Assembly (NCBI GenBank): GCA_964187785.1
Contig: OZ076409.1
Coordinates: 75,084,001-75,148,000 of the forward strand
Source: Amphiscolops sp. MND2022
Lineage: Eukaryota
Direction of reading: 5' to 3'
Length of the DNA stretch: 64,000 nucleotides
Every line of letters begins with the position of its first letter. The first letter of the stretch is position 1. Shown in pieces: positions 690-46,648 of the stretch. The notes beneath the pieces are model-generated. The model did no database searches, was not told where the DNA came from, and saw nothing but the letters and a program-made list of their open reading frames with translations. The translations under genes and the position numbers were made by a program.

Positions 690-870
690 GCTAAAGGTCA
701 GGAACTACGGTCTTTATCTTCCACAACACAAAAGGGATTGCAAATGGTTTCAGTTTGTCGCAGAAAATTTCTTTTTGCCCTCTGTGACTCGACAAAATGA
801 ACGTTTCTTACTTACTTTGAAACTCAGCCTACCACAACTCATCTCTAACGTCAGCGCCCCCCTACTTGCA

Positions 871-920
871 TCAACGCCCACCGTCCGTGGGCATGCCGAG
901 GCATGCCCTTCGACGACGTA
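871..920 (+). repeat. Conserved subterminal palindromic box (first of 39 intact or near-intact copies, one per unit end except unit 5)
   Basis: TCAACGCCCACCGTCCGT-GGGCATGCC-GA-GGCATGCCC-TTCGACGACGTA; 9-bp inverted repeat at 889-908, extendable by CGTC/GACG. Confidence 0.95.
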
Positions 921-954
921 TACCAAGATATACCTGGAGCGCGGTAGCCGCTAG

Positions 955-2234
955 GTGGCCGTGTCTTTTCGACGTGCTTTTGCATTGAGGAGTGGGTAGG
1001 GCCCCGCGACGACCTAGAAGAATTGGATGCTCACCGAAACGTGCAGAATTCTACGAGATCTCATAGTTTGAGCCATACGATTTTTCTGAAATTTGGCATG
1101 TGGCCTGGAATTGGTGAGTAGGTAAAACGTGTAGGAGGTAATTTTTCCCAAATTCCATTGTGAGAGGAGATATGGGCAAATAACGGACCCAAAAATGGGG
1201 AAAATGCACTTTTTTCAAGTTTGTCAGCCAATATCTCATTTCCAGGTGCCCGTAGCGTTCCGCACGTGGACATCAATATTGCTCAGCGCTGTTAGAAGAG
1301 TGCGTGGACAAATTTTGGTTCAAATCGGACTGAAACTTGGCGAGAAATTAACGGTTTTTTGGGCGTTTCCGGGGTAAATTTTTTAACGGTCCAGCTTATC
1401 TTTGCCATTTTTTCGAAAATGTACTTGCCTAAAGGCCTCCCCCTGGCCGAATTTCCTCCCAGCAAACCCATTTGGCCCTAAATACGGAGTTTCAGCGTTC
1501 CAGCATTTCCGGGCGAAAAGTTGTGGGACTTAGAAAAATTTCAAAATTTTTCAAAAAATTTTTTTTCCGTTTTCCGCCCCCCCCAGAGGGGAAAAGACCC
1601 CCCAACCAGTATTTTGAGGGATTGCATGTCGAAAGCCCTTGTTTTGACGAGAAAAATACCGTTTAGAACATCTTTTTATTTTAACTTGACGTTGACTAAT
1701 GACGTTTTGAATGTGATGTTTGGACGTGTGAGGCATCTGAAAAGTTGATGTTTTGAGTCTTTATCTCATGTGAAAGCGATTGAGATGCAAGCTGTACTGC
1801 TCAAAACGTCTTTCGTTGTAGTTTTCCAGTGCCGCAATAACCTTTGATGTCATTTGAATATACTTTTCTTCGATATATTAACAATTTTATTGTATTTATT
1901 CCAATTTTTGTTATCTTATAACTCAAAACAGTTGAGTACATTTCATCTCCCTTTCGGGGGAGATGAGAATGTACTCGCTAAAAACCTAGTGCTATTGCGC
2001 CGCAATGATTGCAAAAGTTGTTTTTACTGCTGTTCCACAAGCATTTTTAAACTGACTTTTTTAAAACTATTAATTAACTTAAAGTACATTACTTGAACTT
2101 ACTACTAATACCACCTATCTCTAACGTCAACGCCCCCCTGCTTGCATCAACGCCCACCGTCCGTGGGCATGCCGAGGCATGCCCTTCGACGACGTATGCC
2201 AAATGCCCAGTGCCACGCAGTCTTTTCCCGCTAG
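955..2234 (+). mobile_element. Unit 2, family A subtype A2 (1280 bp)
   Basis: Starts GTGGCCGTGTCTTTTCG, ends TTTTCCCGCTAG; near-identical to unit 20. Confidence 0.7.
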
Positions 2235-3516
2235 GTGGCCGTGTCTTTTCGACGTGCTTTTGCATTGAGGAGTGGGTAGGGCCCCGCGACGACCTAGAAG
2301 AATTGGATGCTCACCGAAACGTGCAGAATTCTACGAGATCTCATAGTTTGAGCCATACGATTTTTCTGAAATTTGGCATGTGGCCTGGAATTGGTGAGTA
2401 GGTAAAACGTGTAAAAGGTAATTTTTCCCAAATTCCACTGTGAGAGGAGATATGGGCAAATAACGGACCCAAAAATGGCAAAAATGCACATTTTTCAACT
2501 TTGTCAGCCAATATCTCTTTTCCAGGTGCCCGTAGCGTTCCGCACGTGGACATCAATATTGCTCAGCGCTGTTGGAGGAGTGCGTGGACAAATTTTGGTT
2601 TAAATCGGACTTAAACTTGACGAGAAATTAACGGTTTTTTGGGCGTTTCCGGGGTAAATTTTTTAACGGTCCAGCTTATCTTTGCCATTTTTTCGAAAAT
2701 GTACATGCCTAAAGGCCTCCCCCTGGCCGAATTTACTCCCAGCAAACCCATTTGGCCCTAAATACGGAGTTTCAGCGTTCCAGCATTCCGGGGCGGAAAG
2801 TTGTGGGACTTGGAAAAATTTCAATTTTTTTTCAAAAATTTTTTTTCCCGTTTTCCGGGCCCCCAATGAAGGGGAACGACCCCCCAACCAGTATTTTGAG
2901 TGAATTCATGTGGAAAGCCCATGTTTGGAGGAGAAAAATGCCGTTTAGCACATCTTTTTATCTTAACTTGACATTGACTTATGACGTTTTGAATGTGATG
3001 TTAGGATATATGAAGCATGTTAAAAGTTGAAGTTTTGAGTCTTTATCTCATCGGAAAACCATTGAGATACAAGCAGTTTTGCTAAAAACGATTTTCATTG
3101 TAGGTTAGCAGAGTATTAGTACACTTTGATGTCATTTGAGTATATTTTTCTTCTATATAATAACTGTTTTTATGTATTTATTCCAATTTATCTCATCTTT
3201 TAACATCAAGCAGTTGAGTACATTTCATCTCCCTTTCGGGGGAGATGAGAATGTACTCGCTAAAAACCTAATGCTATGGCGCCAATGTTTGGATGGGAAG
3301 TTTTCTATGCTTTGAAAAAAGTTATTTTTAATTACTTGATTTTTTAAAACAATAATTAACATGAAGTACATTACTTGCTCCTACTACTACCACCATACAT
3401 CTCTAACGTCAACGCCCCCTGCTTGCATCAACGCCCCATCGTCCGTGGGCATGCCGAGGCATGCCCTTCGACGACGTATGCCAAATGCCCAGTGCCACGC
3501 AGTCTTTTCCCGCTAG
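2235..3516 (+). mobile_element. Unit 3, family A subtype A2 (1282 bp)
   Basis: Same head and terminal tip as unit 2, diverged 3' body. Confidence 0.7.
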
Positions 3517-4788
3517 GTGCCGGTGTATTTTTACACAATGGGGGATGTTGCGCGTGTGGGGAGGGTCCCTGACGCGCTTCCGTGGTTTCGGGTCTTCTAA
3601 CCTATGATAGCGTGACACCTGACTTCGATCTCGTAAACTAGCCGTACGATTTGGCTGAAATTTGGCACACGTACCCCCCTCGGCACGGTGAAGATGATTT
3701 CCTACTGACGTTTTTCCCGCTAAACATTTTTTGTTGACCAAAATAACGGTTTTTGGGGTAAAATTTTCAACTTTTTTTAAATTTCATCTTATATCTCGCC
3801 ACGGGTACACGCTAGCGCTTCCAAATCCTGCTGACGAAAGCTGGCAAACTGTCTGAGGAATGCTGTGTGAAATTTTCAGCTCAATCGGACTCAAACTCGG
3901 GGAGATATAGCGTTTTTCCGGAGCGGGGGGGTTTCATTTTTCTAACGGTCCAGCTTATCTTTGCCATTTTTTTGAAAATGCACTTGCCTAAAGGCCTCCC
4001 CTGGCCGGTTCTATTCCCAGCAAAACCATTTGGCCCTAAATACGGAGTTTCAGCGTTCCAGCATTCCCGGGCGAAAAGTTGTGGGACTTAGAAAAGTTCA
4101 AAAATTTTCAAAAAAATTTTTTCCGTTATTTGGGCCCTCAAAGTGGGGGAAAAGACCCCCCAACCAGTAAAGCAAGTGAATGCATGTGGAAAGCCCTTGT
4201 TTAGACGAGAAAAATGCCGTTTAGAACGTCTTTTTATCTTAACTTGACATTGACTTTTGTCGTTTTGAAGGTGACCGTTATATACGGAAAATTGAAGTTT
4301 TGAGTATTTATCCCATCTGAAAGCCATTGAGATACAACATGTTTTGCTCAAAACGTGTTTCATTGCAGTTTCGCTGTCCATTATCACCCTTTGGTGTCTT
4401 TTCACGTAATTTTCGTTTCTATAATAACAATTTTTTTGTGTATTTATTCATTTTTTTCTCATCAAATAACTTGAAACAGTTGAGTACATTCCATCTCCCT
4501 TCCCGGGGGAGATGAGAATGTACTCGCTAAAGGTCAGGAACTACGGTCTATATCTTCCACAACACAAAAGAGATTGCAAATGGTTTCAGTTTGTCGCAGA
4601 AAACTTCTTTTTGCACTCTGTGACTCGACAAAGTGAACGTTTCTTACTTACTTTGAATCTCACCATACCACAACTCATCTCTAACGTCAGCGCCCCCTAC
4701 TTGCATCAACGCCCACCGTCCGTGGGCATGCCGAGGCATGCCCTTCGACGACGTATAACAAAATATATTCGAACGCGGTAGCTGCTAG
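3517..4788 (+). mobile_element. Unit 4, family A subtype A1 (1272 bp)
   Basis: Starts GTGCCGG, body near-identical to unit 1, conserved box, ends GCGGTAGCTGCTAG. Confidence 0.7.
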
Positions 4789-5858
4789 GTGGTCAAGGGG
4801 GATGCCCATCAGAAAATATTGCGAGGCCGGGGAGGGTCCCGAGAGCCGAGCACATTCTATCAATTCCTACCTTCAGGATTGCGAAGTATTTTAACCGATC
4901 TCGAAATTCACCCGTAGGATTTGTCTGAAACTTTGCATGTGGCTTTATCTAAAAAATTTAAGAATTTTTTTCTTCTGACGTTTTTCCAGGAAAATTCATT
5001 TTGTAGGGTTTTTTTGCGTTTTTTTGGTTTTTTTCATCTTTTTTCATCTTTGATTAATCAATGACCGAATCAAAGGCCATTTCCACCATGAAGGAAAGCC
5101 CGTAGCGGCAAAGTGCACATTTATGAAAATCATCAACGGTCAACGGTCTTTCGAACGGTCCGAAAAAATTTTCCCCCGGGGGAAACCAAAGTGCCGAAAA
5201 GTGCCAAAATTATTTTTTTGACTGAATCACTTTGATCAAATTGATGATTTGAGCAGCCGGAACGGTCCGCACGGTCTCGGACAATAAGGTTAAAAATTGT
5301 CAGCATCCAATGGGGGTTCCAGAAATGTAATTCGTTCACCTGTAGGAGACATCAGAAAAAAGTTGATTTTTTGGGGTATATGTCATTATGAGTGATTGGA
5401 TGAGAAATAATTGTATCACTTTCAGTTGGATATGATGCAGCACAGGAAGCAGCTGCAGCAAACTTGAAACTGATTATGGGGCTGGGGTTTACCCTCTGTA
5501 TCGAGCAAAATAGCCCTAGGGCATAAGTTGTGCCAAAAAATGCCTCAAAGTGATGATTTGGTTATTGCAAATCGATCAGCAAAATTTATTGTCACCGGTG
5601 TTCCGAGAGTTGCGCAGCATCTCGCAGGAACAACGGTGCTTGCTTAGAAAGCAAAAAACCACAAAATCCCTTGAGTTAAGTTGACGGCAGTCACAATAGA
5701 CATTCACTCGTCAGGGTGATGATATTTATCGTTCAATCCCAGAATAACTTACAAAAAATTGCTAGCCTCAATATTTCTTTTTCATACTCCATTAGCAAAG
5801 GTTGCGCTGTTAAGTTTAGGCCTTTTACTAGCAGTGCTCTAAATCGCTCCATCGCTAG
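4789..5858 (+). mobile_element. Unit 5, singleton family E (1070 bp), lacks the GGGCATGCC box
   Basis: Bounded by CTAG|GTG on both sides; keeps the 5' motifs GGGGAGGGTCCC (4829-4840) and GATCTC...TGAAACTTTGCA; body otherwise unique. Confidence 0.65.
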
Positions 5859-7124
5859 GTGCCGGGATTTCCATTCGATAAGGAATTCTGCGCGTGTGGG
5901 TAGGGCCCCTGGCGCGCTCCTGTGTTTTCGGTTTTCCTACTCCTAAATAGGCCCCCTGAATTCCGGGATCTCCTAAACTATCCATACGATTTGGCTGAAA
6001 TTTGGCACACAGCCCCGTTGGAACATTGTAAGAACAAATCCCTACTGACGTTTTGCCCGCTAAACATTTTTTGTTGGTCAAAAATGCAATTTTCCGACAA
6101 AATTTTTGACTTTTTTTCAAGTTACAGTCTATATCTCGTCCCAGGGTTACGCTAGCGGTCCCAAACCCCAGTCGGAAAAGTTCGTAAACTGTCTCAGGAA
6201 TGCGGTGTCAAATTTTCAGGTCAATCGGACTTAAACTCAGCGACTTAGAGCGTTTTTTAGGTGCATTTTTTGACATTTTTTGCGTTTTTCGATTTATCTC
6301 TGCCGTTTTTTGCCCAGATTTTTTTTGAGACACTCTCCTAAAGACCTCCCCTGGCCGGTTTACCTCCCAGCAAAACCATTTGGCCCTAAATACGAAGTTT
6401 CAGCGTTCTAGCATTCCTGGGCGAAAAGTTGTGGGACTTAGAAAAATTTTTTGGGTACGCAAAATGTGTAAAGTCAACTTCAGGCCTCCCAAAGTCAAGA
6501 AACTTCCACACAACTAGTATTGCAAGTGAATGCATGTGGAAAGTACTCGGATAGACAAGAAAAATGAGCTATAGAACGACTCTGTAGCTCAACCTGACGT
6601 TGACTTATGATGTTTTGAATGTGTGCTTGCTAAGGGGTCCGAAACTGAAAATTTTTAAAGAAAATTAATATCGTCAAAAATTCATCGGAATGCCTGCAAT
6701 ATACAGTAGAGCGTGATCAATTGTAGCTGACTAATGCATCAACGCCGTTCAAGGTCTTTTAACTCAGTTTCAAATTTTTTTACACTGTATTATTCATCCG
6801 AGAGCACAAAACAGTTGAGTACATTCCATCTCCCCTCCGTGGGAGATGAGAATGTACTCGCTAAAGTCCAGGTGCTACAGCCCATATTTGTTTTTTTTGC
6901 GGCGCTATTTATGCTAGTGCGCACACGTATTAACTTTTTACCTGATTTTACTTTTGTCAGTACTTTTACTTTGACTTGACATATACTGAACATTATGTCC
7001 TTCTATCATACACATGACTAACGTCAACGCCCCATCCTTGCTTCAACGCCCACCGTCCGTGGGCATGCCGAGGCATGCCCTTCGACGACGTATGCCAAAG
7101 ATATTCCCGAGCGCGTTAGCCTAG
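5859..7124 (+). mobile_element. Unit 6, family A mosaic (1266 bp)
   Basis: A1-like 5' part (AAACTGTCTCAGGAATGC), 3' body like units 10, 11 and 22; box and CTAG end. Confidence 0.7.
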
Positions 7125-8397
7125 GTGGCCGCGTCTTTTAGATGGACTTTTAGCCCTGAGGCGCGGGTAGGGTCCTGCGCCGACCTGGTGAAAATATACT
7201 CCTGGCAAATGGCCCGAATCGGAGACGATCTCAAAACTGGCCCGTACGATTTTCCTGAAAATTTGCATGTGGCCCCCAATTGGCGAGCAATGAAAAAGTG
7301 TAGGAGGTCATTTTCTCCTGGTTTCATTGTGAGACGAGATATATGAAAAAAAATGACCCCAAAATGACGAAATTTTCACTTTTTGACCAAAAATGTGACA
7401 TTATCTCCTCAGACAAGGCTCGGAGCAAAATTTGTCAGAACCCAAACCTGCAGCAGACTGTTAGAGCAGTGCACACAGTAAGTTTGAAGGAAATCGGATA
7501 ATCACATGTGGAGAAATTGACGTTTTTCCGGCGAAATTTTTCGCAAATGCAGTCTATCTCTGCCGTTTTTTGCCCAAAATTTTTCCGAGACCCTCTCCTA
7601 AAGGCCTCCCCTGGCCCATTTTCCTCCCAAAAAAACCATTTGGCCCTAAATACGAGGTTTCAGTGTTGCAGCATTCCCCAGTGAAAAGTTATGGGACTTA
7701 GAACTTTTTCAAAAATTTTCAAAATTTTTCTAAAAAAGATCAGGCCGCCCAAAGTGAAGAAACTTCCACACAACTAGTATTGCAAGTGAATGCATGTGGA
7801 AAGCCCTGCACTTGACGAGAAAAATGCCGTTTAGAACGTCTTTTTATCTTAACTTGATGTTGACTTATGATCTTTTGAGTAGCGTATAACACGTGATCAC
7901 AGTAGTGAAAATCCTAATTTTCAATAATTTTCCAACAATAACGCATGAAAAAAACCTGGAAAAGGTTCCGATGGGTCAATTGGGATGTCTGAAGCATGTG
8001 TACATTCCCGTAGTGTATACTGGATGTATTTGGGACTTATTAGAAATTGTGATACATTTTATACAAGTCTTTGTTTCTCTTAGAATCTTATGCAGTTGAG
8101 TACATTGCATCTCCCTCTCAGGGGAGATGTGAATGTACGTTTGCCAAATGCCTTGTGAAGTGCACATGTTTGATGGACTTAACTAAGTAATCAAGTGTGA
8201 GTCGCGTTTGCCGCATCGCTACAGCAAAAAAAAACTAAAACTTTAGTCAGATTGAATGGTTTTTGTCGTTAGTGTTTCTTCTTGTATAGCCGACTTCCAC
8301 ATCCAATTATCAACGCCCACCGTCCGTAGGCATGCCGAGGCATGCCTTTCGACGACGTATGCCAAATACCCAATGCCACACAGTCTTTCCCCGCTAG
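7125..8397 (+). mobile_element. Unit 7, family A subtype A3 (1273 bp)
   Basis: Starts GTGGCCGCGTCTTTT; close relative of unit 35; box variant AGGCATGCC-GA-GGCATGCCT. Confidence 0.7.
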
Positions 8398-10384
8398 ATG
8401 GGCGGGGGTAATTCCCCTTCAAAAAATTCGGCCGGCGGGTTGGGTCCTGCCGGACGTCAAATAGTGTGAAACATCCAGTAGGAAACGGCGACATAAATCA
8501 GCGATTTTAAAATTTAACCGTTAGAATTCGGACTTGGAGTGCATGCGGCCCCAAAATTCCCATACGAATCGAAGTTCCTGCTGACGTTAAGCGATAAAAA
8601 CATTTTATAAAAAGTTATGGCCCATTTTACGTTCACCTATGAGGGTAAAATGAGGAAAATTTTTACAAAGTCGCTGATAACTCAAAATACATTGTTTTTT
8701 GGCTTTTGACTGTGAAACAAGCTTATAACCTTCATTTCGTGGCTGTGGCATTGCACTGAACACAAAAGATGTAAAGTTTTTACATTTTTCGAAAATTCGA
8801 CATTTTTGATTTTTTTTTCACTACTATCAGTACACTATATGTCAAAAACACCTCTGAAAAAGTTTTTTATTTGCTTTAAATTGGAAACCTTGGTATCCAT
8901 GGTTTCTGTCGGAATCTACTCGCTGCCAAACACCCAACAGTTTGCATCCAATGTGAATTTAAAATTTTTTTCGAGGTCATAAGGGTTTCACAAGGTTTTC
9001 ATAACATAGTATTAAACTACAAACTGGTCATTTTCAACATAATATCTTTGTCGAGGCATGTCGGATATAGTCCTATTGCTCACGAACGGTCCTACTGGCA
9101 ACGTAATAACCATTTATAGAAATGTAAAGTTATAAAAAAAATTTTTCACCCGGTCTTCAGTCATTTTTCAGTCATTCGGAACTTAACTTAGAAAAATTTC
9201 GACCAAAATATCCATTTTTTGTCAGGTCGAAAAATCAAATTCAGATTTTTAAGCAAAATTATTAACTCTGACGTAACCCATGGGGCTCATGATACTCAAA
9301 ACAACGATTGACACTGGTATCAATGGCTCCAATAACATATGAGTCGCGATAAGACGTTATTTTGAGCATTACGTCTCAATTGAGGTAAAGATCTCGCAAG
9401 CCAGCGATCACTGTGAAATGTAATTTCATCAAAAATTTACTCTTTTTTGTCAATCACTATGTGCACAGAATGCGTAGGGTGCGTTTCAGCACTATAATGA
9501 GGTTTTTGAAGGCATCGAGTTGCTCAAGGGGTGGTATGAGACACTTTTGTCCCATATACTACTGTATTTTCCAAAATTTTTAGCCCAATATCTGGAAATA
9601 CAAACTTGACAAAATACTTTCAACTACTTTATTCAAAGGTTACAATATAGATGAACACTGTGGTTGATCAGAAACTTTCATCTCTTTCGTTTTCCGAAAT
9701 ATTTCCCTTCGCATGTGTTACATTCGTAGCAGAAAAAAAAATCGAAACTGAAAAATACGCAATTTTGCTAATATAGAATCGCAATGATTGTGCCTAAAAA
9801 CTCTTTAAACACTTCTAACGCAACCTTACGCACCCAAAATGATCGAAAATGCTATTCACAATGGTGACATGTGCTCTTTCTACGATCCTGGCTGGACAAG
9901 GTTTGCATATTTTTCAAGTACCTGTCAGCTAAATCTTGTGATAGCCTTTTCAGTTGGCCTTGTGTCAACTTGGGAAGGCTATCACATCAAAAAACCATCA
10001 ACAAAAATAATTTTTGTTTATTGGATCTTACAGTCGATACTTTTTTTCGTGATTCTATACTACCGTTAGTAAATTTCCTCAGGTCACCTTACGATTGCAT
10101 TCAGTCTTTGATAAAAACCTCTGAACTCAAAGTCACATTTTTATATTTTTTTGCCAAAAAATAACATCAAAAATATCTAAAATATATAAAATAGAGTCTT
10201 TAACATTTTTACGTTTCAAGTTTTTGCCGTTATTAGGTCAATCAACGTCCTAGAGCCACGCTCTCTGTCATACTGTACAACGCCACATAGTGTTTCGACG
10301 TTCACAGTCTGTGGGCATGCCGAGGCATGCCCTTCGACGACGTATGCCGAATACCGCGGGCCTACGCCCGCGCTCCCCGGCTAG
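8398..10384 (+). mobile_element. Unit 8, singleton family F (1987 bp)
   Basis: Starts ATGGGCG (only non-GTG start); unique AT-rich body; conserved box, then perfect hairpin CGCGGGC-CTAC-GCCCGCG (10355-10372) 12 nt before the end of the terminal CTAG. Confidence 0.7.
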
Positions 10385-13300
10385 GTGGTCAGTGCTGTTG
10401 CGTTCATTTTTTTCCGGCCGTGGGGGAGGGCCCCTCTGAGGCCGGTCATTTTTCAGGTAACAGCTTTCCTATACAAAAAAGGGGGAAAAAACCTCAGTGC
10501 TCAAATCCCAACCGTCAGAATGAGCTGAAATTTGGCATGTAGCTAGTGCATTGCAAATGATTAGGATGGGTTATAACGCTATGTTTGGCAAAATTGGTTT
10601 TGTTGCATTTTTTTTGTCATATAGGGCCAAAAATGGCCTTTTTTGCGTATTTTTTGCTTGACTAGCTAATAACTCGCGTTGGGTTGGTACTAGCGATACG
10701 GGTGTGGGGTATGGAATTGTAAGAATACCAAGTACCTTGCTGATCACGTTATTTGATTTCCGCCCACATCACCCCCCACGCCGGAAATGCCCAATTTGTC
10801 ACTACCGGTCGCAATTTTTGACTTTTTTGGATGGAGTCAAAACCCATTTCCGGTGTGAAGGAGTGGGTTGAGCGCTTCGACCCCAATATACTAAAAGTAG
10901 GTTTAGACAAAGTCCTATTAGGAAAAAAGTAATGTAAGCCCGTACCTATCACCCCCTCACCGGAAATAGGGGTCACGCCTCCTTTTTCTGTGTTGCAAAA
11001 GTGGCATGTGCACATTTGTCCAACTCCGAAGCCCCGGAGCACTGTGGGACCCTCATACTTTCTAAACACCTATCCCACACGCTACCGGAAGTGACCGGAA
11101 GTTTCACCGGAAATGACATCCTTGGACCGGAAATGGTCAAAAAAGGACTTTTTCAATAAAAAATAGACACTTTTGGTGCAATTTTTAGGCAAAAAGCATA
11201 ATTCGTGATACGCTTGTTGCAGTTGAAAGGGCCATTGTTCAGCAAGAATGCATACAGCATTACGTAGCACATCAAGTGGTTGATAATTTTTCGTCCATAA
11301 TATCCATAGGACCGGAAATGGCCATTTTTGAATCGGAAATTTCTTCAGCTTGATTTTTAACAAGTTTTTCCACAATATTAGTGTAGGAATTGCTCGTCGG
11401 ATGCTTTAGGTCTATTTTAAAACTAGCTGACTGCTTCTTAGAAATGTATTTCAGAAATCCCAACCAATTCCAGATTACCGGAAATGGGAGTAATTGCCTC
11501 CTTTATGACCTTTGAATGATAAATTGTTAAAATCCGCAAATTATTTTATTCCACAACTGTTGCTCAGGTTATATCTAAGCAATAACATCTGCTTGTTTTG
11601 AAGTGCTGTATTGTGGGAGATACAAATATTGCTTTTTAATAGTAATACATACGTGATATTCGCCGCAAAAAAGATTTTTCAAATCAACCATTTTGAAGTC
11701 CTACTGGTGTTCCGCACACCCGAAATAATTTAAGTTTCTAGTTTCGATTTTCAGGCTTCCGCGACTATTGAGTTGAGATGATAGTTTTCACGTTCTCTGC
11801 AAAACGGGCATTTCATTGTGTATGTGACATTTATTGGGTTGTTTCACATGGTAATTCAAAACTAATTGATCATACAATTTAGAACAATTGAAAATTTTCA
11901 ATTGAACAATAAATGTTTTAATATTTTCTCTTTCGTTAAAGATACTCTTTTGTGGCCATTAGAACAGGTTGAATTGGTTGAATAAGTAACCAGTGCGATA
12001 CATCGTTTAATACATAGCGTTTGACATCGTTTTCTTGCGAACAAAGACAAGCATGATTTGTTGGAAGTTTTTACCATATCGCTTCAAATCGGTCGTGACA
12101 AACAATGAATTTCTCGTTTTAATTGCTACTTCGAAAGCAGCCTGAAAACGCAAATCGATCTATTGAGTTATGGAGATGCAACTAAGCATTTCAAGTCTGG
12201 GTTTCAATTTAATTCTATCACTCCGGACTATTTTTATGTCGCAAAAGTGATAAAGGGTGTTAGCAAGGTTAAAAACATCGAACAATTTTAAAAAATTAAT
12301 GCCTCCGGAAAGGGAAGAAAAATGAGTTTTCCTGTCAAAACAATGACAACCACGTACGAAACATCAAGTATTTGTATTGTTCAATAGTCCAAAACATTAA
12401 TGAAGTTTTTAAATATCCAAGAGTTTCTAATCAAGCATGCGTTTCGAATGTCTCACAGGGCAGCATCGTTTTCAAAAAACAGTGCTTTCAATGTGGTTTC
12501 ATACCAGCAAAACGAACGCAGGCACAACCACATTCTCAAAATTCTTGCACAACAACCAATTTCTTTGAAAATCCTATTTGATTCCTCAAGGTATATGGTG
12601 AGAACCCTGTTGGGTTCCAAAGTTGATGTGCTGTTTTCTTGGGTTTGCGAGATAAGTTACAACGGAAATCTGAAAGCAGGTCGTCTCAATAAAATACCTG
12701 TTGCTCTTTAAACGATTGGACTTAAGTAGTCGAAATTTATTCTCAGACACTTTCGATCAGAGAATGTTTGAGTCCTAACGTTCGAATCAGGTTGGTTTCA
12801 GGTGGCTCGAAGTGCCAGCTGAACCAACCTTTCAAATAAAGAAAAACCCCACACCTCCCTTCATGCCACGCTACCCCGTATAGCGTTTCAACTTGACAGA
12901 AATTGGAACGTTTGATTTTGGCGTCGCTTGGGATTGACACACCAGTGTTGATACTAAATTTGGCAAAGAGAAATCGCAGAAATGATTGTTTCTGTTTTTC
13001 CCTTTGATTTAGTGTGTCGAGCGTACAAAGCAGTTTGGGAAACTAACTTGCATTTCCACTGAACGAAAAGCAAAAGTAGTAACATTGAAAACTTCCGGAA
13101 TAAATTTAATCAGGTTTCCGTATTTGTGAGATCAGCTGCCACTCAGTTATCAGTTACATCTTTCAAATTTTTAAGAACAACTAATCTAACTTTGCTCGAC
13201 TCTCTTGGATAAGGCAACAATAGTTTACTAATCTGTACTCGTGGAAAAAAGTCAACTGCCGGGTGAAAAACAATCTGTATGTAACTTTTCTCTCGTGCAA

Positions 13301-13458
13301 AGTTATTTTTTACCCCCTCTGACTCAACTATAGCATGTACGTAATGAAACCAATAACACCTTCAACTGTTAATCAACGCCCACCGTCCGTAGGCATGCCG
13401 AGGCATGCCTTTCGACGACGCGCGCCAAAAACAATATAACGGCGCCACCCGCTTCTGG
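10385..13458 (+). mobile_element. Unit 9, family D (3074 bp)
   Basis: Starts GTGGTCAGTGCTG, ends GCTTCTGG; full-length homology to units 30 and 31. Confidence 0.7.
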
Positions 13459-14762
13459 GTGGCCACGACCATGGTTTCTTGCGTATCTTGTCGAATCTTT
13501 TGTCGTTGCCGGCCGGGGAGGGACCCGTTTGCCGGCGTGTGTAGTGTGGGGCCCCCATACCCAAAAAGTGGTATTTTTTTCAGAGATCTCAAAATCGGCC
13601 CGTCAGAATTGCCTGAAATTTGGCATGATGCTCCCAATTGGGGAAAAAATAAGAAGTGTAGGAGGCGACTTGTTCGGGTAAATATTGTATGTTGACTTTT
13701 GGCCAAAATAGTGTTCCCCCCCAACATGGGCAAAATCACATGAGGTGTAAAAATATGATCACAACTTTTGAACCTTTGGATTTAGGGGTACGGTCGTGGA
13801 CCACATTAAGCAAGAGCTTTGGTGAGCGGGTAGGATAGATGGGTTTTGATCCCAGTACCTTCAACCACTTTTGAGAAATTAACGTTTCAAACAAACATCC
13901 GGGAGGTATCTGTTGCCCCTGAAGGCAGGTTTTTCGCCATTTTCAATGTGAAGGAGTGGGTTTAGCGTAACGTGTGTGGGGTGCTTTTTTGTTGCCCGTG
14001 TGCGGAGCGTTGTATAGAGGTGCTGGTTGTTGAAATTGGAAAAGCTGCTAAAAAGTTATACCTATACCCCCCCTACTGTCTCTGCCATTCAATTTTTTTT
14101 TCAACTTCAGGCCTCCCAAAGGTGAGAAACTTCCACACAACTAGTATTGCAAGTGAATGCATGTGGAAAGTACTCGGATAGACGAGAAAAATGAGCTATA
14201 GAACGACTCTGTAGCTTAACCTGACGTTGACTTATGACATTTTGAGTGTGAGCTTGCTACGAGAGAAAAAAATTTAAAATTGAAAATCGAAGCTAAGTCT
14301 CATCCAAAACTCATCGAAATACGTTCAATCCATACCAAAGCGGTCAAACTCCAGCTATATAGTGCAACAACACTATTCAAGACCATTTGACACAATTTTA
14401 TTAGTTTTGACATTGTATTATTCATCCGAGAGCACAAAACAGTTGGGTACATTCCATCTCCCTTTCGGGGGAGATGAGAATGTACCCGCTAAATGACACG
14501 CACCATGGCCTAATTTTTACCTTTATGCGACGTTTTCTAGGCTTTCGCGCAAGCCCACTAATATTTAGACTGGTTTCTTTTTCTTTCACTCCAAACATTC
14601 CGTCCGTACTAACCACCTTACACACCACCAGCAGCTCAACGACACATCTGTAACGTCAACGCCACATACTCGCATCAACGCCCACCGTCCGTGGGCATGC
14701 CGAGGCATGCCCTTCGACGACGTATGCCCGTTGTCACAACAGGGCGCCCCTACATTCTCTAG
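13459..14762 (+). mobile_element. Unit 10, family A mosaic with unique 5' half (1304 bp)
   Basis: Starts GTGGCCACGACC; 3' half like unit 11; terminal hairpin GCCCGTTGT-C-ACAACAGGGC before CTAG. Confidence 0.7.
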
Positions 14763-16043
14763 GTGCCGGGATTTTCTATTCGATAAAGTAAGTTGCGCGG
14801 TTGGGTAGGGCCCCGTGAGCGCGCCCGTGTCTGTGTTTTTTGAACCTGAATTTGCGGGTGCCAAAATAGACGATCTCCTAAACTATCCATACGATTTTGC
14901 TCAAATTTGGCATACGGGTTCCTGAGACAGATATAAGAACTAATTCCTACTGGCGTTTTGCCCGGAAAATTTTTTTTGTTGCGCAAACTTGAAATTTTTG
15001 ACAAAAAAATGCGATTTTTTTTGAAAAAATTTTTTTGAGAGGCCATATCTTTTTTCAGGGAGCCCGGAGCGGGACGCGTTAAACTGATTATAAACTCTAC
15101 GGTTCACGGGCTGTACGGGGAACCTATTTTTGTTGGAATCCGACTTGTAGATTTTGAGATATATTATCAAATTTGGGTGTTTTTTTTCCAATTTTTCGAA
15201 AAACCTGGTTTATCTCTGCCGTTTTTTGCCCAGATTTTTTTCTAGACCCTCTCCTAAAGGCCTCCCCTGGCCGGATTACGTCCCAGCAAAACCATTTGGC
15301 CCTAAATACGAAGTTTCAGCGTTCTAGCATTCTCGGGCGAAAAGTTGTGGGACTTAGAAAATTTTTTTTTAAAACGCAAAATGTGTAAAGTCAACTTCAG
15401 GCCTCCCAAAGTCAAGGAACTTCCACACAACTAGGATTGCAAGTGGATGCATGTGGAAAGTGCTTGAATAGACGAGGAAAATGAGCTATTATAAAACTCT
15501 GTAGCTTAACCTGACGTTGACTTATGACAATTTTAGTGTGAGCTTGCTATGTGAGAAAAAATTTCAAAAATTGAAAATCGAAGCTAAGTCTCATCCAAAA
15601 CTCATCGGAATACGTTCAATCCATTCCAAAGCGGTTTACTTCCAGCTATAGACTGCAGCAACACTATTCAAGACCATTGTACCCCTTTATATTAGTTTTG
15701 ACATTGTATTATTCATCCGAGAGCACAAAGCAGTTGAGTACATTCCATCTCCCTTTCGGGGGAGATGAGAATGTACTCGCTAAAGAACAGGTACTACAGC
15801 CAATTTTTGTATTTATGCGAAGCCATTCTTTGCTATTGCACATAACAACTATGCTATTGACTTAATTTTGCCTACACTTTGCTATGACATATGCTAAACG
15901 TTTGGTCCTTACAACAACATACACATGACTAACGTCAACACCACATACTGTTACCAACGCCCACCGTCCGTGGGCATGCCGAGGCATGCCCTTCGACGAC
16001 GTATGCCAAATACCTTCCAGCGACGCTCGCGCTCCCCGGCTAG
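14763..16043 (+). mobile_element. Unit 11, family A mosaic (1281 bp)
   Basis: Middle module CCCGGAGCGGGACGCGTTAAACTG shared with unit 16; body like unit 6; ends CGCGCTCCCCGGCTAG like unit 8. Confidence 0.7.
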
Positions 16044-23803: not shown

Positions 23804-25192
23804 GTGGTTGGGGCGGTCCCCAGAACGCACAAGGAGGCGCGGGGAGGGTCCTGCGCCGACGTAGAATAATTTCATATAATACTAGTATCCTACATGGGTG
23901 TTTTAGAGGCGATTTTGGAATCTAACCGTAGGATTTGGATAATTTTTTGCATGCGGCCATAACTCGAAATTCTAAGAACTTTTTCCTACTGTCATTTTCC
24001 CCGCAAATTGTTTTTTGTTGACTTATGGCCGAAAAACCGGAAATAACGTCCTTTTTAGACGTTATATCCGAAGTGTCGTCATAACTTTTTTCCAGGGCAT
24101 GCTAGCGTTCTTCTTCACTTTTACACTTAGTTGCAGCATCTCAAAATACAACTGGTGGAAACTTTTGGTTGCATTCGGATCACCCCCCACCGAGATAGAA
24201 GGCTTCCCCCCTCCAGATTTACCCCCCAAATTTGCAAAAAAAGCCAATTTTGAGCATGAAGCCGAGGATTTAGCGTACCCGCACCCTCCTGATGTTTTGT
24301 TGTACGTATTGGGGTCAATCTGACGACATGTGCGGTTTTCACCCCCAACCCCCCCTTGGACCGGAAATGACACTTTTTTGTGTTTTTTGGCAGAATTTAG
24401 CCTTTTTCATTATTAGGCAGTCGTTTTAGGGACTCCTAGCAGGATATCGAAATTGAAATACAACCTGATCACAACCCAGTGACAACATGTTGGCCACTTG
24501 GAGGTATCATCATGATCGGAAGTGGGGTCAACCCCCCTTTTTGTGACCGCTTTTTGACCTTGTGCACCAAAATGCCAACATCTTGAGGCCTAATGAGGCA
24601 TTCAAATCTGACAAAGATAAAATGTTAGACAACCGAAGTCCCGGAAGATCTTTAGCATATACCGGAAGTTACCCCCCATGACCGGAAGTTACCCAATGTG
24701 ACCGGAAATGGTCCAAAAATTAATGTAAAGTTGAATTTTTCACTATTTCAAGACCACTTAATTGAAACTTTTCAATCTCAAAACTAGCGTACTGGCTTGT
24801 TTTGCTGAATTTATGGAAATTGATGAGCTCTATCGCCCCCGATAGCCTTCGAAGTTGACCTTGCGTCAACTTTGGAGGCTATCGATAAAGAAAAATGAAC
24901 AACAAAGTACATTGTTGCTCTCGTTTTTTTCCCGTTGTTTTTCCTCAAACATTCTTGAGACATATACATGGCCGTTAGTTGAAATCAATATTTAGCCCAT
25001 GTTATAGCTGGAGCAGCGAAGCGTTACACAGACTAGTGTGGTTTTGAAATCACACTATTTAAATTAACAACTGACCGTCTTAGTCAACTCCACACATTCA
25101 TACCAACGCCCACCGTCTGTGGGCATGCCGAGGCATGCCCTTCGACGACGTATGACGAATCTAATCCAACGACACCCGCAGTCCTCAGCTAG
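23804..25192 (+). mobile_element. Unit 18, family B (1389 bp)
   Basis: Starts GTGGTTGGGGCGGTCCCC, ends GCAGTCCTCAGCTAG; near-identical to unit 27. Confidence 0.7.
24840..24884 (+). other. Long internal stem-loop of family B (representative copy)
   Basis: CGATAGCCTTCGAAGTTGAC-CTTGC-GTCAACTTTGGAGGCTATCG: 20-bp stem with two G-T wobbles. Confidence 0.85.
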
Positions 25193-27860: not shown

Positions 27861-29531
27861 GTGGTTGGGGCGGTCCCAAGAACGCACAAGGAGGCGCGGG
27901 GAGGGTCCTGCGCCGACGTAGAATAATTTCATATAATACTAGTATCCTACATGGGTGTTTTAGAGGCGATTTTGGAATCTAACCGTAGGATTTGGATAAT
28001 TTTTTGCATGCGGCCATAACTCAAAATTCTAAGAACTTTTTCCTACTGTCATTTTCCCCGCAAATTGTTTTTTGTTGACTTATGGCCGAAAAACCGGAAA
28101 TAACGTCCTTTTTAGACGTTATATCCGAAGTGTCGTCATAACTTTTTTCCAGGGCATGCTAGCGTTCTCGTTCACTTTTACACTTAGTTGCAGCATCTCA
28201 AAATACAACTGGTGGAAAATTTTGGTTTCATTCGGATCACCCCCCACCGAGATAGAAGGGTTCCCCCCTCCAGTTTTACCCCCCAAATTTGCAAAATAGC
28301 CAATTTTGAGCATGAAGCCGAGGATTTAGCGTACCCATACCCTCCTGATGTTTTGTTGTACTTATGGCCGAAAAACCGGAAATAACGTCCTTTTTAGACG
28401 TTATATCCGAAGTGTCGTCATAACTTTTTTCCAGGGCATGCTAGCGTTCTCGTTCACTTTTACACTTAGTTGCAGCATCTCAAAATACAACTGGTGGAAA
28501 ATTTTGGTTTCATTCGGATCACCCCCCACCGAGATAGAAGGGTTCCCCCCTCCAGTTTTACCCCCCAAATTTGCAAAATAGCCAATTTTGAGCATGAAGC
28601 CGAGGATTTAGCGTACCCATACCCTCCTGATGTTTTGTTGTACGTATTGGGGTCAATCTGACGACATGTGTGGTTTTCACCCCCAACCCCCCCTTGGACC
28701 GGAAATGACACTTTTTTGTGTTTTTTGGCAGAATTTAGCCTTTTTCATTATTAGGCAGTCGTTTTAGGGACTCCTAGCAGGATATCGAAATTGAAATACG
28801 ACCTGATCACAACCCAGTGACAACATAGTGGCAACTTGGAGGTATCATCATGACCGGAAGTGGGGTCAACCCCCCTTTTTGTGACCGCTTTTTGACCTTG
28901 TGCACCAAAATGCCAACATCTTGAGGCCTAATGAGGCATTCAAATCTGTACCAAGATACAATGTTAGACAACCGAAGTCCCGGAAGATCTTTAGCATATA
29001 CCGGAAGTTACCCCCCATGACCGGAAGTTACCCAATGTGACCGGAAATGGTCCAAAAATTAATGTAAAGTTGAATTTTTCACTATTTCAAGACCACTTAA
29101 TTGAAACTTTTCAATCTATAAACTAGCGTACTGGCTTGTTTTGCTGAATTTATGGAAATTGATGAGCTCTATCGCCCCCGATAGCCTTCGAAGTTGACCT
29201 TGCGTCAACTTTGTAGGCTATCGATAAAGAAAAATGAACAACAAAGTACATTGTTGCTCTCGTTTTTTTCCCGTTGTTTTTCCTCAAACATTCTTGAGAC
29301 ATATACATGGCCGTTAGTTGAAATCAATATTTAGCCCATGTTATAGCTGGAGCAGCGAAGCGTTACACAGACTAGTGTGGTTTTGAAATCACACTATTTA
29401 AATTAACAACTGACCGTCTTAGTCAACTCCACACATTCATACCAACGCCCACCGTCTGTGGGCATGCCGAGGCATGCCCTTCGACGACGTATGACGAATC
29501 CACTCCAACGACACCCGCAGTCCTCAGCTAG
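27861..29531 (+). mobile_element. Unit 21, family B with internal 282-bp tandem duplication (1671 bp)
   Basis: Family B ends; 28079-28360 repeated at 28361-28642. Confidence 0.7.
28079..28642 (+). repeat. 282-bp direct tandem duplication inside unit 21
   Basis: CTTATGGCCGAAAAACCGG begins at both 28079 and 28361; the ORF track repeats with a 282-nt offset. Confidence 0.95.
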
Positions 29532-32080: not shown

Positions 32081-34258
32081 GTGGATGGTATTTTATAACA
32101 ATTAAAATGTTTTTTTCCGGAGTTTGTGGCTTTGGAAAAAACAAAAGGCGAGAAATTGGGCACTCCAGGCTGAACCTAAAAACACCCTAAAATTCGCCCG
32201 ATTTTTTTACGATCTCGAAACCCAACCGTACGATTTGGCTGAAAATTTGCATGTGGCTCCTAATCAATGAGTAATGAAAAAGTGTAGAAATGACTTTTCC
32301 TGGGAAAATTGTTTTTGTTGCACTTTTTGCGCAATTTTTGACCGATTGTTGCGTTTTTTATGTCACTTTTGACTTTTCAGGCAAAAAACTCATGGATGCT
32401 TTGATCCTAGCGCATCCAGTGTTTCGACCAAAAAGTTGCAGCATGTTCTTTTACGTATGTTGAGAAAATTTGGTTGCCATCGTATTACCCCCCACTGAGA
32501 TAGAGGGGGACTTCCGGTGGATTTTAGCACCCTAAAAACAAGGACCTCCTAAATTTCAGCATGAAGCGGTAGTTTTAGCGTGCTCATACCCTGCTGAAAC
32601 TTTGTTGGGCATAATGAGATTGTCCTGATATCATGTGTTCAGTTCACCCCCCATCACCCCCTGGACCGGAAATGAGCTTTTTTTGCACTATCATACCGGA
32701 AGTCTCCAATTTCACCGTTAAGCAGTCCTTGTACGAGCAACTACCAGGACATCAAAATTGAAGTACCACCTGAGGTCAACATAGTGACCACGTGTTGTCC
32801 AGTCATAGGTTCCGCTATGACCGGAAATGGGGTCAAAACCCCCTTTTTTGGTTGTTTTTTAACAATTTGACTAGTGTTTGGTCCACATTCAAGTCGCGTA
32901 AGTCAATTGAATCAGCGTGAGCATAAACTGTATGTTCACTGCGTAGACGTAACTGACACTGACAGATACCGGAAGTAACCCCCCGTGACCGGAAGTTGTC
33001 ATTTTTGACCGGAAATGGTCCAAAATGTACCGTAAAATCAGTTTTTCACTGCTTTTTAAAGTCAACTTATTACTTTTTCAATCTCCGCGAGCTTGTATTC
33101 AGGTTCGTTTTTGTTACCCGTGCACTTTGCAACAAGTATACATCTGTAAAATTTTCTCTATGATATCTTCGGATAGAGAAATAACATATTTTTGAGACTT
33201 TTTTCAAAAATATTAGACTATATCTGTCATTTTTACCCAAAGTTTTTCAACAGTACAACCACAGTGGTTAGTCTCTGCCCAAATTTATGCCTAACAAAAC
33301 TATTTGGCCCATTGGCCTCAGTTTGAGCGTTCCAGCTTTGCGTGATCATAAGCTAAGGGACATGAAAAATTTTCGAACTTTTTTCAAAAAAAAATCTCAC
33401 ATTCATGTCTCCCAAAGTGAAGAAACTTCCACACAACTAGGATTGCAAGTGGATGCCTGTGGCAAGCCCTATAATTGAAGAGAAAAATGCCGCTTAGAAC
33501 GTCTCTTTATCGTAACTTGACGTTAACGTATGGTGTTTTGAATGTGAGCTTGATAAGGCGTCGAGAAGTCAAAGTGTGTAAATGGAACGTACGTCTCGTC
33601 GAAAACTCATCGGAATTCATGCAATGAACCCCAATTGTCCTCAATGGCAGTTGCCTACTGCAACAACGTCTTTCTGGTACTTTTCACCCACTTTCATAAG
33701 TGTCAAAATTCTTTTTAAATTCAGTTAGCAAGAAGTACTTGAGTACATTTTCATCTCTCCCCAGCGGGTGAGATGAGAATGTTCTTGCTTAATGCCAGGT
33801 ACTACGGCCCCCTTTTGTTTTAATGCGACGCATTCTCTGCTTTAGCACATAGATATTTCATTTCGCCTGGTTTTTTGTATACTCTCTGACTTGTTATTAT
33901 AAAGTTCTCGTCATTACTTTACATAAATTTACAACCATAAATCGTTATCGGCAACGCCACATACATTTAGACGCCCACCATTCTGTAGGTATGTCGAGGC
34001 ATACCTTTCGATTACCTATGTCATAACGCAAACGCGATAAAAAGTGCTGAAATTCAGAAACAGTGAGAAACAATTTTCACTATTTGACATATGGTAGGTT
34101 TCTATAGGGAACTTACACATCACTGACATTTCACAACATTCCAGCTGACGCCCACATACCAACATCAACGCCCACCGTCCGTGGGCATGCCGAGGCATGC
34201 CCTTCGACGACGTATGCCAAATTTTTTAAAATCTACACCCAATTGCGGTAGCTGCTAG
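32081..34258 (+). mobile_element. Unit 24, family C (2178 bp)
   Basis: Starts GTGGATGGTATTTT; same length as and near-identical to units 29 and 33; carries relic and intact terminal boxes. Confidence 0.7.
33971..34012 (+). repeat. Relic second copy of the terminal box inside family C (also near 37565, 41130, 43305, 51637, 53811)
   Basis: ACGCCCACCATTCTGT-AGGTATGTC-GA-GGCATACCT-TTCGA, 196 nt upstream of the intact box at 34183-34202. Confidence 0.85.
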
Positions 34259-35646: not shown

Positions 35647-37829
35647 GTGGAGGTTATTTTATAATAATTAAAGTGTTTTTTTCCGGAGTTTGTGGCTTTG
35701 GAAAAAACAAAAGGCGAGAAATTGGGCACTCCGGGCTGAACCGTAAAGGCCGATTTTATACTGTAAAAAACGCCCATTCTAACTACGATCTTGAAACCCA
35801 GCCGTACGTTTTTGCTGAAAATTTGCATGCGGCTACAAAATCAGATTCTAAGAACTTTTTTCTGCTGACTTTTTTTTGGAATTTTTTTGTACGTTTCCCC
35901 CCCGCCCCCTAAAGGGGTCAATTTTCCCCAATTTTGTACTTATGAGTCATATTCTCAAAACTGGTTGATCTGAGAGCAATCCTTGTGGAGAGAACTTTTG
36001 TAGAGCGCTCTTCAGTTGACTTTTTGGAGTTTTTACTTTGGTGGTACGTTCACCCCCCACAGCGGAAATAGCGTTTTTGTAACTTCCGGTCGAGCAATTT
36101 TCCACCCAAAAATTAGAATTATGCCAGTTTAGAGCACGAAGCAGTAGTTTTAGCGTGTTCATACTCTCCTGAAGTTTTGTTGGGCGTATTGAGGTAGACA
36201 TGATATCAAGTGTTCAGTTCACCCCCATCACCCCCTGGACCGGAAATGAACTTTCTTTTTTCCCCTTTCTTACAGGAAGTGTCGATTTTCACCGATAAGG
36301 AGTCCTTGTACGAGCAACTAGCAGGGCATCAAAATTGACGTACCACCTGGGGTCAACTTAGTGACCACGTGTTGTCCAGTCATGGGTACCGCCATGACCG
36401 GAAATGGGGTCAAAACCCCCCTTTTAGTTGTTATTTTATCAATTTGACTAGTGTTTGGTCCACATTCAAGTCGCGTAAAACAATTGAACCTGTGTGAGCA
36501 TAAACTGCATGTTCACTGCGTAGACGTAACAGACACTGCCAGATACCGGAAGTAACCCCCGTGACCGGAAGTTGTCATTTTTGACCGGAAATGGTCCAAA
36601 AAATAGCGTAAATGCAGTTTTTCACTGCTTTTTAAGGTCAAGTTATTACTTTTTTCAATCTGCACGAGCTTGTCTTCAGGTTCGCTTTTGTTACCCGTGC
36701 ACAGCGCAACAAATATACATCTGTAAAATTTTCTCTATAATATCGTCGGAGAGAGAAATAACGGGTTATTGGGGCTTTTTTTCAAAAATATTAGTCTATA
36801 TCTGTAATTTTTGTCCAAAGTTATTCAACAGTACTACCACAGAGGTTAGTCTCTGCCCAAATACATGCCTAACAAAACTACTTGTCACATTCGTCTCAGT
36901 TTGAGCGCTCCAGCTTTGCCTGGTCATAAGTTAAGTGACATAGAAAATTTTCATTTTTTTTCAAAAAAAATTTCTCGCCTTCAGTTCCTCCAAAGTAAAG
37001 AAACTTCCACACAACTAGGATTGCAAGTGGATGCATGTGGCAAGCCCTATAATTGAAGCACAAAAAACCGCTTAGGACGTCTCTTTATCGTAATTTGACG
37101 TTAACGTATGGTGCTTTGAATGAGAGCTTGCTAAGGGGTCGAGAAGTCAAAGTATGTAAATGGAACGTATGTCTCGTCGAAAAGTCATCGGAATACATGC
37201 AATGAACCCCAATTGCCCTCAATTGCAGCTGCCTAGTGCAACAACGTCTTTCAGGGACCTTTAACCTATTTTTATTAGTGTCAAAACTATTTTAAATTCA
37301 GTTAGCAAGAAACACTTGAGTGCATTCTCATCTCTCCCCAGCGGGTGAGATGAGAATGTTCTTGCTAAAAGCCAGGTACTACGGCCCACTTTTGTTTTAA
37401 TGCGACGCATTCTCTGCTTTAGCACATAGATATTTTTATTTCGCCTGATTTTCTGTATACACTCTGACTTGTTATTATGAGTTCCTCGTCATTACTTTAC
37501 ATAAATTTACAATCATCAAACGTTATCGTCAACGCCATATAGATTTAGGCGCCCACCATTCCGTAGGTATGTCCAGGCACACTTTTCGATTACGTATGTC
37601 AAAACGCAAACGCGATAAAAAGTGCTAAAATTCAGAAACAGTGACAAACAAATTTGACTATTTGACATATGGGAGGTTTTCATATGGAACTTACACATAG
37701 CTGACATTTCACTACATTGCAGCTGACGCCCACATACCAACATCAACGCCCACTGTCCGTGGGCATGCCGAGGCATGCCCTTCGACGACGTATGGCAATT
37801 ACCTTCCACCGACGCGCACTCTCCCCTAG
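35647..37829 (+). mobile_element. Unit 26, family C variant (2183 bp)
   Basis: Starts GTGGAGGTTATTTT like unit 32; C-type body; ends CTCTCCCCTAG. Confidence 0.7.
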
Positions 37830-46500: not shown

Positions 46501-46648
46501 TACCCCCTCTGACTCAACTATAGCATGTACGTAATGAAACCAATAACACCTTCAACTGTTAATCAACGCCCACCGTCCGTAGGCATGCCGAGGCATGCCT
46601 TTCGACGACGCGCGCCAAAAACAAATTAACGGCGCCACCCGCTTCTGG
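43577..46648 (+). mobile_element. Unit 30, family D (3072 bp)
   Basis: Full-length homology to unit 9; CTGG end. Confidence 0.7.

Follow-up and report, generated by a model that had tools for sequence, protein, structure and literature searches.

Canonical Helitrons carry a hairpin and a CTRR end, form head-to-tail junctions and use the hairpin as a terminator, as described in the accessible parts of the cited papers (PMC11417382, PMC4067079, PMC5876387, PMC13085455). In such partly available accounts the hairpin lies approximately 11 bp from the 3' end, and tandem arrays, the terminator role of the 3' hairpin and bypass of the 3' end have all been described. The insertion target of IS91 is a tetranucleotide similar to that at its own end, and a failure of termination leads to read-through, according to the available portion of its description (PMC13181058). 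Replitrons, in the accessible text of the source, are a type of HUH element that carries short direct repeats at its termini and a single hairpin at the right end, and that inserts in one orientation after RG (PMC10288648).

The stretch of DNA analysed here (the window, 64 kb, positions 1-64000) is a mixed head-to-tail array. It comprises 39 complete units of 1070-3074 nt and two partial ones, all in a single orientation, which belong to about 12 families (12 clusters at the loosest threshold; the letters C and D match those of the first-pass annotation). All features described below are on the + strand. The 40 junctions between units all read CTRG|RTG, as CTAG|GTGG in 21 cases, CTAG|GTGC in 15, CTGG|GTGG in three and CTAG|ATGG in one, and conservation around this core stops within approximately 2 nt upstream and 1 nt downstream. 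The tetranucleotide CTRG is that of canonical Helitron ends, as given in the accessible parts of two of the papers (PMC11417382, PMC5876387). One junction, CTAG|GTGG at 951-958, joins the 3' end of one unit, a variable tail (926-954) with CTAG as its last bases, to the first complete unit, a 1280-nt member of family A (955-2234) with an RTG start, a GGGWAGGGYCC motif (994-1005), the shared 5' module, a long internal hairpin (HP2), the box and a tail. The CTRG-RTG motif occurs once more on the + strand, at 8020-8026 inside the unit 7125-8397, where it does not serve as a junction. No terminal inverted repeat was found, the longest reverse match between 5' and 3' ends being 4-8 nt in the 39 units, nor was a unit-specific target duplication found at the array junctions. 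Among individual units, the family-B unit at 27861-29531 contains an internal 281-nt tandem duplication (99% identical), and in family D (10385-13458), which ends in CTGG and not CTAG, numerous ACCGGAAAT/ACCGGAAGT motifs are scattered over the 5' half in either orientation.

The segment flagged by the first-pass annotation (871-920) corresponds to positions -18 to +31 relative to a 20-mer, GGGCATGCC-GA-GGCATGCCC, at 889-908. The conserved terminal box around it extends from 871 to 925 (-18 to +36, approximately 55 bases), and the 20-mer is a dyad composed of two self-palindromic GGCATGCC octamers at a 10-bp period, with 9-bp arms and a 2-nt centre. The 18-nt core was found at 39 terminal sites in the window (38 exact and one with a single mismatch), compared to a mean of 0.01 matches in shuffled sequence, and in 39/39 cases the 20-mer ends 43-56 nt before the junction. 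Mean pairwise ungapped identity across 12 family representatives (11 from the window and the outside relative L001) is 0.94-1.0 at -10 to +29 and 0.25-0.33 beyond. This confirms that the box is almost invariant across families whose bodies differ. It is a near-invariant signal close to the tail end of approximately 40 gene-less elements. A partial repeat of TCAACGCC (851-858) is located upstream, at 18-20 nt from the copy with which the box begins, and is present in 27 of the 38 boxed complete units; the same repeat precedes the relic boxes described below, and may be a second binding site.

Within families, the 20-mer differs at 0/120 sites in C, 0/1100 in G and 0/60 in A, where bodies differ by 15-20%. 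In family E it differs at 2/20 sites against 8.6% in the body, and in the young families B and D the 20-mer comparison gives no contrast between box and body. Six displaced copies of the box were found in addition to the terminal ones: five relic sites in the window scan, each with three mismatches to the 18-nt core, and a sixth, at 37565, in the alignment of family C. The first type (R1) lies inside family C, ahead of the terminal box by 193-196 nt, at 33987-34006, and again at 41130, 43305 and 53811; its sequence, AGGTATGTC-GA-GGCATACCT, the relic form quoted earlier, thus accounts for four of the six. The second (R2, 51637-51656) has one T-C mismatch and two wobbles, and the third (R3, 37565-37584) has one A-C mismatch and an altered loop. 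The change C3>T is common to the relic types, with the partner change added in two of the three, and all relics have lost a core C. Four family-C units have both a terminal box and a relic 193-199 nt upstream of it. In these the terminal 20-mers differ at 0/120 sites and the relics at 21/120, close to the family-C body rate of 19%. The box is therefore kept up only in the terminal position, under a constraint that is strong and position-dependent, and the displaced relics of the same units have not been homogenised. Part of the uniformity of the terminal boxes may nonetheless be due to conversion, since family-C bodies carry two unrelated tails. The earlier proposal of a cis signal that is under constraint and has a constant location close to one end of a mobile unit is supported by this decay upon displacement, and also by L001, where the box is 96.6% identical over 58 nt, in the A..T form, and the body pieces are 69-80% identical.

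The same proposal had taken paired changes in the outer arms as covariation, and hence as pointing to selection on a hairpin or cruciform, or to a symmetric protein-binding site. All of the variants on which it was built are present. The terminal 20-mers comprise 34 of the G..C form, four of the A..T form (8328, 13391, 46581 and 49651) and one G..GT (55386). The A..T form is found in one family-E copy (8328-8347), the other E copy (56660) having the G..C form, and in family D (13391-13410 and the copies at 46581 and 49651), whose units terminate in CTGG. The copy at 55386-55405 has CC>GT at its last two positions, which weakens the main stem; these two adjacent changes convert both mismatches of an alternative stem, formed by the right arm and a downstream partial repeat, to Watson-Crick pairs and so perfect it. 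This copy looks like a product of template switching, a process which, in the available part of the source, can give paired changes in one step with no need for stepwise selection (PMC8794818).

The alignment used to assess covariation comprised L001, the three relic types and 20 of the 39 terminal boxes. Three pairs are doubly changed, a number equalled by 88/500 shuffles. Measures based on cell counts were reached by 0/500 shuffles, but these count sequences, not events. Among the terminal boxes only the outer pair varies, in two haplotypes between which the two family-E copies are divided; the remaining two double changes sit in relics, one of them beside an alignment gap. The strict form of the structural explanation holds that what is maintained in the box is a hairpin or cruciform shape, the paired changes being compensatory substitutions under selection, and we consider it distinctly improbable. 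It can draw on the outer pair, which is G-C or A-T in 12/12 representatives (Fisher p=0.0045, assuming an independence that tail exchange removes, as tails have been swapped within family C and the copies of the box are thus not independent), on the 98% of cells that pair in the 9-bp stem, on the A..T form of L001, and on the partner changes in two of the three relic types that share C3>T. The double changes do not, however, exceed the shuffles, the R2 and R3 relics and the 55386 copy break pairs, and unpaired bases are conserved equally to paired ones; in 12/12 representatives there is no variation in the 2-nt loop, in a T-T mismatch or in the flank TTCGACGACG. Folding of the box region is modest by z-score (-1.3 to -3.4), and it is the - strand that folds better, in contrast to the other hairpins of the units. 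An alternative fold of the box into two hairpins was rejected, as it had no covariation support. The covariation case for the box is therefore weak, and the earlier argument, which had left out the pair-breaking relics, the 55386 copy and the conservation of unpaired bases, does not carry the selection on a hairpin that was drawn from it; a symmetric protein-binding site is plausible. Given the invariant loop and unpaired flank, the relic types that break pairs and the template-switch pattern at 55386, the box is best read as a sequence, beyond mere shape, which may also extrude as a stem. As a caution, when paired changes are seen in the short DNA palindrome that a repeat family carries, template switching and end exchange are possible sources.

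As a sequence, the 20-mer matches two RRRCWWGYYY decamers with spacer 0 at 19/20 positions in 38/39 terminal boxes. The p53 consensus consists of two such decamers separated by 0-13 nt, as stated in the accessible part of the source (PMC3485254). It is possible, but in our view unlikely, that the box serves a host transcription factor, a p53-family tetramer being the most likely one. Such a site, which in an array or circle precedes the next 5' end by 43-56 nt, could drive or time transcription or mobilisation, and would be compatible with the rolling-circle mechanism favoured below. The 39 terminal boxes are the only sites in the window within two mismatches of the consensus, and an arbitrary palindrome with 9-bp arms reaches such a match with a probability of 3.7e-4, which is a figure for a single motif where many factor motifs could have matched. 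The arms are self-palindromic with a 10-bp period, a feature not required of a hairpin; the change between G..C and A..T preserves R and Y, and every relic loses a core C. Sites for p53 are also known, from the available part of the report, in a zebrafish non-autonomous DNA transposon, EnSpm-N6_DR, where they likewise consist of two decamer half-sites. The putative site here differs in being common to all families, at a fixed distance from the end and inside 55 conserved bases. On the other hand, the positions that the consensus leaves free (R, W and Y) are almost invariant, the single mismatch to the consensus is itself invariant, and approximately 35 nt of flank outside the consensus is equally conserved. 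The p53 reading would account for the self-palindromic arms and the 10-bp period, but not for the invariant flanks or the degenerate positions.

Structure seems to be selected elsewhere in the units, namely in HP2. In the unit that ends with the flagged box, HP2 is a hairpin of approximately 20 bp at 646-689, and it has a counterpart in 12/12 families, of about 17-20 bp and 270-680 nt before the unit end, with a folding energy stronger than all 20 shuffles in each of the 12. Its stems are unrelated in sequence between the A-like group, B/F, D and the box-less unit; the examples at 646-689, 9939-9986, 12790-12829, 24840-24884 and 5593-5638 occupy a similar place with unrelated stems. HP2 is a better candidate for covariation than the flagged box, and is possibly a second-strand origin. 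A second hairpin, HP1, is 5' subterminal and surrounds a conserved G-rich loop motif (for example 23836-23857 in family B); its stems are family-variable, and its energy is clearly above shuffles in only 3/12 families. RNAalifold on MAFFT alignments of HP1 and HP2 recovered inner stems only, the stems not being alignable across families. On the + strand, G-T exceeds A-C appositions by 13:1 in HP2 (7:0 for six stem types, p=0.016) and by 17:1 in HP1, in counts that are partly homologous, and the + strand folds at least as well as the - strand in 33/33 hairpins. This wobble bias and better folding point to a single-stranded phase of the + strand, as DNA or RNA. Small tail hairpins are present in some families only. 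The first 200 nt of all units form a shared 5' module, with GGGWAGGGYCC at approximately +40 (family C is without it and has a different hairpin there) and a block GATCTC...CCGTACGATTT...CTGAAATTT.GCATG at about +105 to +150.

The order of units is mixed, with 26 different family neighbour pairs at the 38 internal junctions. Tails that are at least 90% alike were found in 36 of 703 unit pairs; 35 of these pairs also agree in sequence on the upstream side of the box, and 17 have the same downstream unit. Tail similarity correlates with that of the upstream body (Spearman 0.26, p=3e-12) and not with that of the downstream unit (0.06, p=0.10). As the tail follows the upstream body, units reassort at the CTRG|RTG junction and not within the box. 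These data bear on the explanation that the array is an old satellite with diverged monomers, reshuffled through homologous recombination or gene conversion at the box they have in common, or that its units are retro-mobilised, in either case with no dedicated end signal. Exchange within the box does occur, as shown by the two unrelated tails on family-C bodies (eight pairs with upstream identity of at least 0.9 and tail identity below 0.7), and runs of one family (G) are present in the array. Crossovers in the box would however tie tails to the downstream unit, and the relic boxes of the same units have stayed unhomogenised; nor was any 5'-truncated unit found at the 40 junctions, or a poly(A) tail or an HDV-like, hammerhead or Pol III signature. 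We therefore regard this explanation as very improbable. The family-C units at 35647-37829 and 49719-51904 differ from other C units in the tail after the box, which corresponds to an exchange of 3' ends within the box.

Searches for coding sequence and for known RNAs were negative within their scope. The window contains 64 ORFs of 80-135 aa and no convincing gene, and none of 122 reading frames from 11 representative regions reached the Pfam cut-off, so that no transposase or coding remnant was detected. ARAGORN and Rfam gave no tRNA or other family at gathering score in the 64 kb (best Rfam E-value 0.15, in 800-14800), and descriptor tests for a hammerhead core and Pol III boxes were negative, with none consistent. 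An HDV-like P1 was considered and rejected, as a partner was present in 5/13 and showed no pattern. No matches were found in viral contigs with the flank-only, box or HP2 patterns, or in GTDB genomes, and blastn of one unit returned nothing from phages and a single 53-nt match, at chance level, from plasmids. Together with the lack of genes in the array, these negative searches of GTDB, viral, phage and plasmid collections suggest a eukaryotic host. Metagenomes contained one locus, the contig L001, which is a diverged relative. Its junction at 879-886 reads CGAG|GTGC, and CGAG is likewise found at the centre of the box. One outside sequencing run (share 0.11) contains diverged relatives; among the outside-run matches listed none shows an insertion site outside an array, and among the sequencing-run matches listed none is an RNA run. 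In a single outside-run contig (depth 2.1) an A-type tail is joined to a G-type head at the junction, which is a weak observation. A further contig (outside run X1, record 3, window 8393-8569) ends exactly at GCTAG before the unit that starts with ATG, as expected if several tails precede this unit, and gives a weak hint on the position of the cut.

The mixed order of units, reminiscent of a cassette array, also suggests tyrosine-recombinase cassettes of a Crypton- or integron-like kind, in which CTRGRTG would be a crossover core of 6-8 bp, units would excise as circles and integrate at existing junctions, and the box would be an accessory site. A directly repeated 7-nt motif does flank every unit, and Cryptons have terminal direct repeats of 4-6 bp and no long inverted repeats, according to the accessible part of the source (PMC3212892). 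The inverted arms of 11-13 bp expected around a 6-8 bp core are not conserved beside the junction, however, and the two sides of the core vary independently of each other (CTGG, ATG, CGAG). Strand displacement accounts better for the wobble bias of one strand and for the CTRG end, though single-stranded folding is also a property of integron sites. Recombinase cassettes thus seem to us a doubtful explanation.

On balance we favour, by a modest degree of belief, the reading that the box is a sequence-specific 3' subterminal signal for recognition and termination. The elements that carry it would be non-autonomous and of the rolling-circle type (HUH, Helitron-like), with their own junction as the site of insertion. 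As no transposase was found, we infer this mechanism, with its enzyme, nick and terminator role for the box, from the anatomy of the units, their junctions and the constraint. A trans-acting Rep/helicase would nick at CTRG|RTG and displace the + strand. Binding to the box, as a duplex dyad or an extruded stem, would then stop or position the Rep/helicase, and the cut would fall at the next CTRG. It is probably by a rolling-circle enzyme or a host protein that the box is bound, rather than its being a hairpin maintained for shape only. The excised unit would join the same sequence at an existing junction, so that many families could accumulate in one array. A box pushed inward by a new 3' end would fall out of use and decay, and the family-C relics fit such a gain of a new 3' end. 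The paired changes would be rare haplotypes, probably generated in one step by template switching and spread via exchange of 3' ends.

This rolling-circle reading is favoured by the CTRG 3' end at 40/40 junctions, the lack of a terminal inverted repeat or unit-specific target duplication, the 26 neighbour pairs, the tail that follows the upstream body, the position-dependent constraint and the wobble bias of the + strand. Against it, one of the 39 complete units is without the box and yet ends at a normal junction. This unit (4789-5858) is present in a single copy and has a normal 5' end, an HP2-like hairpin (5593-5638) and a CTAG|GTG end. Either its box was lost after insertion, or it co-travels with its neighbour, or the box is dispensable; under the rolling-circle reading it would travel only together with the downstream unit (the two spanning 4789-7124). 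Further points against are that the 5' RTG is never TC, that the flanks are G|R, or R|T with a shifted cut, and not A|T, that the box is at 43-56 nt from the end compared to approximately 11 bp in canonical elements, that L001 ends in CGAG and not CTRR, and that neither a transposase nor an autonomous partner was found, none of the 122 frames reaching the Pfam cut-off. If the enzyme were found, the displaced, decaying box and the unit without a box would serve as natural controls in the sequence, which would make the role of the 3' signal directly testable.

Of the described classes, HLE1 elements (the Helraiser/Helibat type) resemble the units in their 3' CTRG (here CTAG or CTGG at 40/40 window junctions, and CGAG in L001), a 20-nt subterminal palindrome, the lack of terminal inverted repeats and target duplication, head-to-tail junctions, the gain of new 3' ends, and a conserved 3' end with divergent bodies. 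They differ from the units here, which start with RTG and not TC (0/40 junctions with TC) and seem to use their own junction as target and not A|T. An A|T insertion fits 1/40 junctions if the cut is placed one base further right, a count that covers array junctions only, without a unit-specific duplication. The HLE1 palindrome of 16-20 nt lies approximately 11 bp from the 3' end, the one here at 43-56 nt; in addition, the array is made of about 12 families, not one, and an extra long hairpin is present upstream. Helentron/HINE/DINE-1 elements (HLE2), in the accessible parts of their descriptions, are likewise non-coding with a palindromic motif 38-60 bp from the 3' end, and their families are also defined by shared ends with below 70% internal identity. 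They differ in having subterminal inverted repeats of 11-18 nt, for which no match at the 5' end was found here (longest exact match 4-8 nt; 5' end against box flank p=0.31), and in their T-rich ends and T|T target, neither of which was seen at the junctions. Thus the box acts like a Helitron 3' end, but with no TC start, a palindrome too distant, no subterminal inverted repeat and no T|T target the elements are assigned to neither class.

The junctions here also follow RG, as in Replitrons, but the 7-nt motif flanks each unit solely because units abut, and Replitrons are reported, in the accessible text, as dispersed copies from algae, plants and protists, with no mixed self-targeted arrays described there. 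Cryptons may share the short direct repeat at both ends, and they likewise lack long inverted repeats; the units differ from them in having no recombinase gene and no inverted binding arms around a core. IS91 has a CTCG end and a CTTG target in the available part of its description, compared to CTAG, CTGG or CGAG here, and in both systems, judged here by the array junctions, the end resembles the target. Oriented insertion, subterminal palindromes at both ends and read-through upon failed termination are further apparent likenesses, and the IS91-like pattern (an end tetranucleotide similar to the target, orientation and no duplication) matches the array junctions, which are the sole sites seen. 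The array differs from IS91 in being gene-free over 64 kb, with no Y2 transposase, and has no match in GTDB genomes or phages and none beyond chance in plasmids.

No description of mixed self-targeted arrays with these ends was found in the literature searched, including the accessible text of three further reports (10.1101/2021.06.02.446622, PMC5737581, 10.64898/2026.09.17.752431), although repeat databases (Repbase, Dfam) or supplements may already list the families. If the enzyme were found, this would be a site-specific eukaryotic rolling-circle integration system. Elements of this kind would be missed by Helitron finders that are based on structure and require a 5' TC. A more speculative extension, to which we attach a low probability, is that the units belong to an undescribed eukaryotic rolling-circle group with the nick logic of IS91, in which the end motif is the target motif. 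Its members would insert only into each other's junctions to form integron-like arrays, and a dozen non-coding families would share one terminal box, a p53-family site that might have been recruited to bring mobilisation, or transcription of the enzyme driven from the junction, under the control of germline or DNA-damage signalling. The Helitron arrays described in the accessible literature repeat one element, whereas the array here combines many families with a single target in common, which is their own junction, and a single invariant end box.
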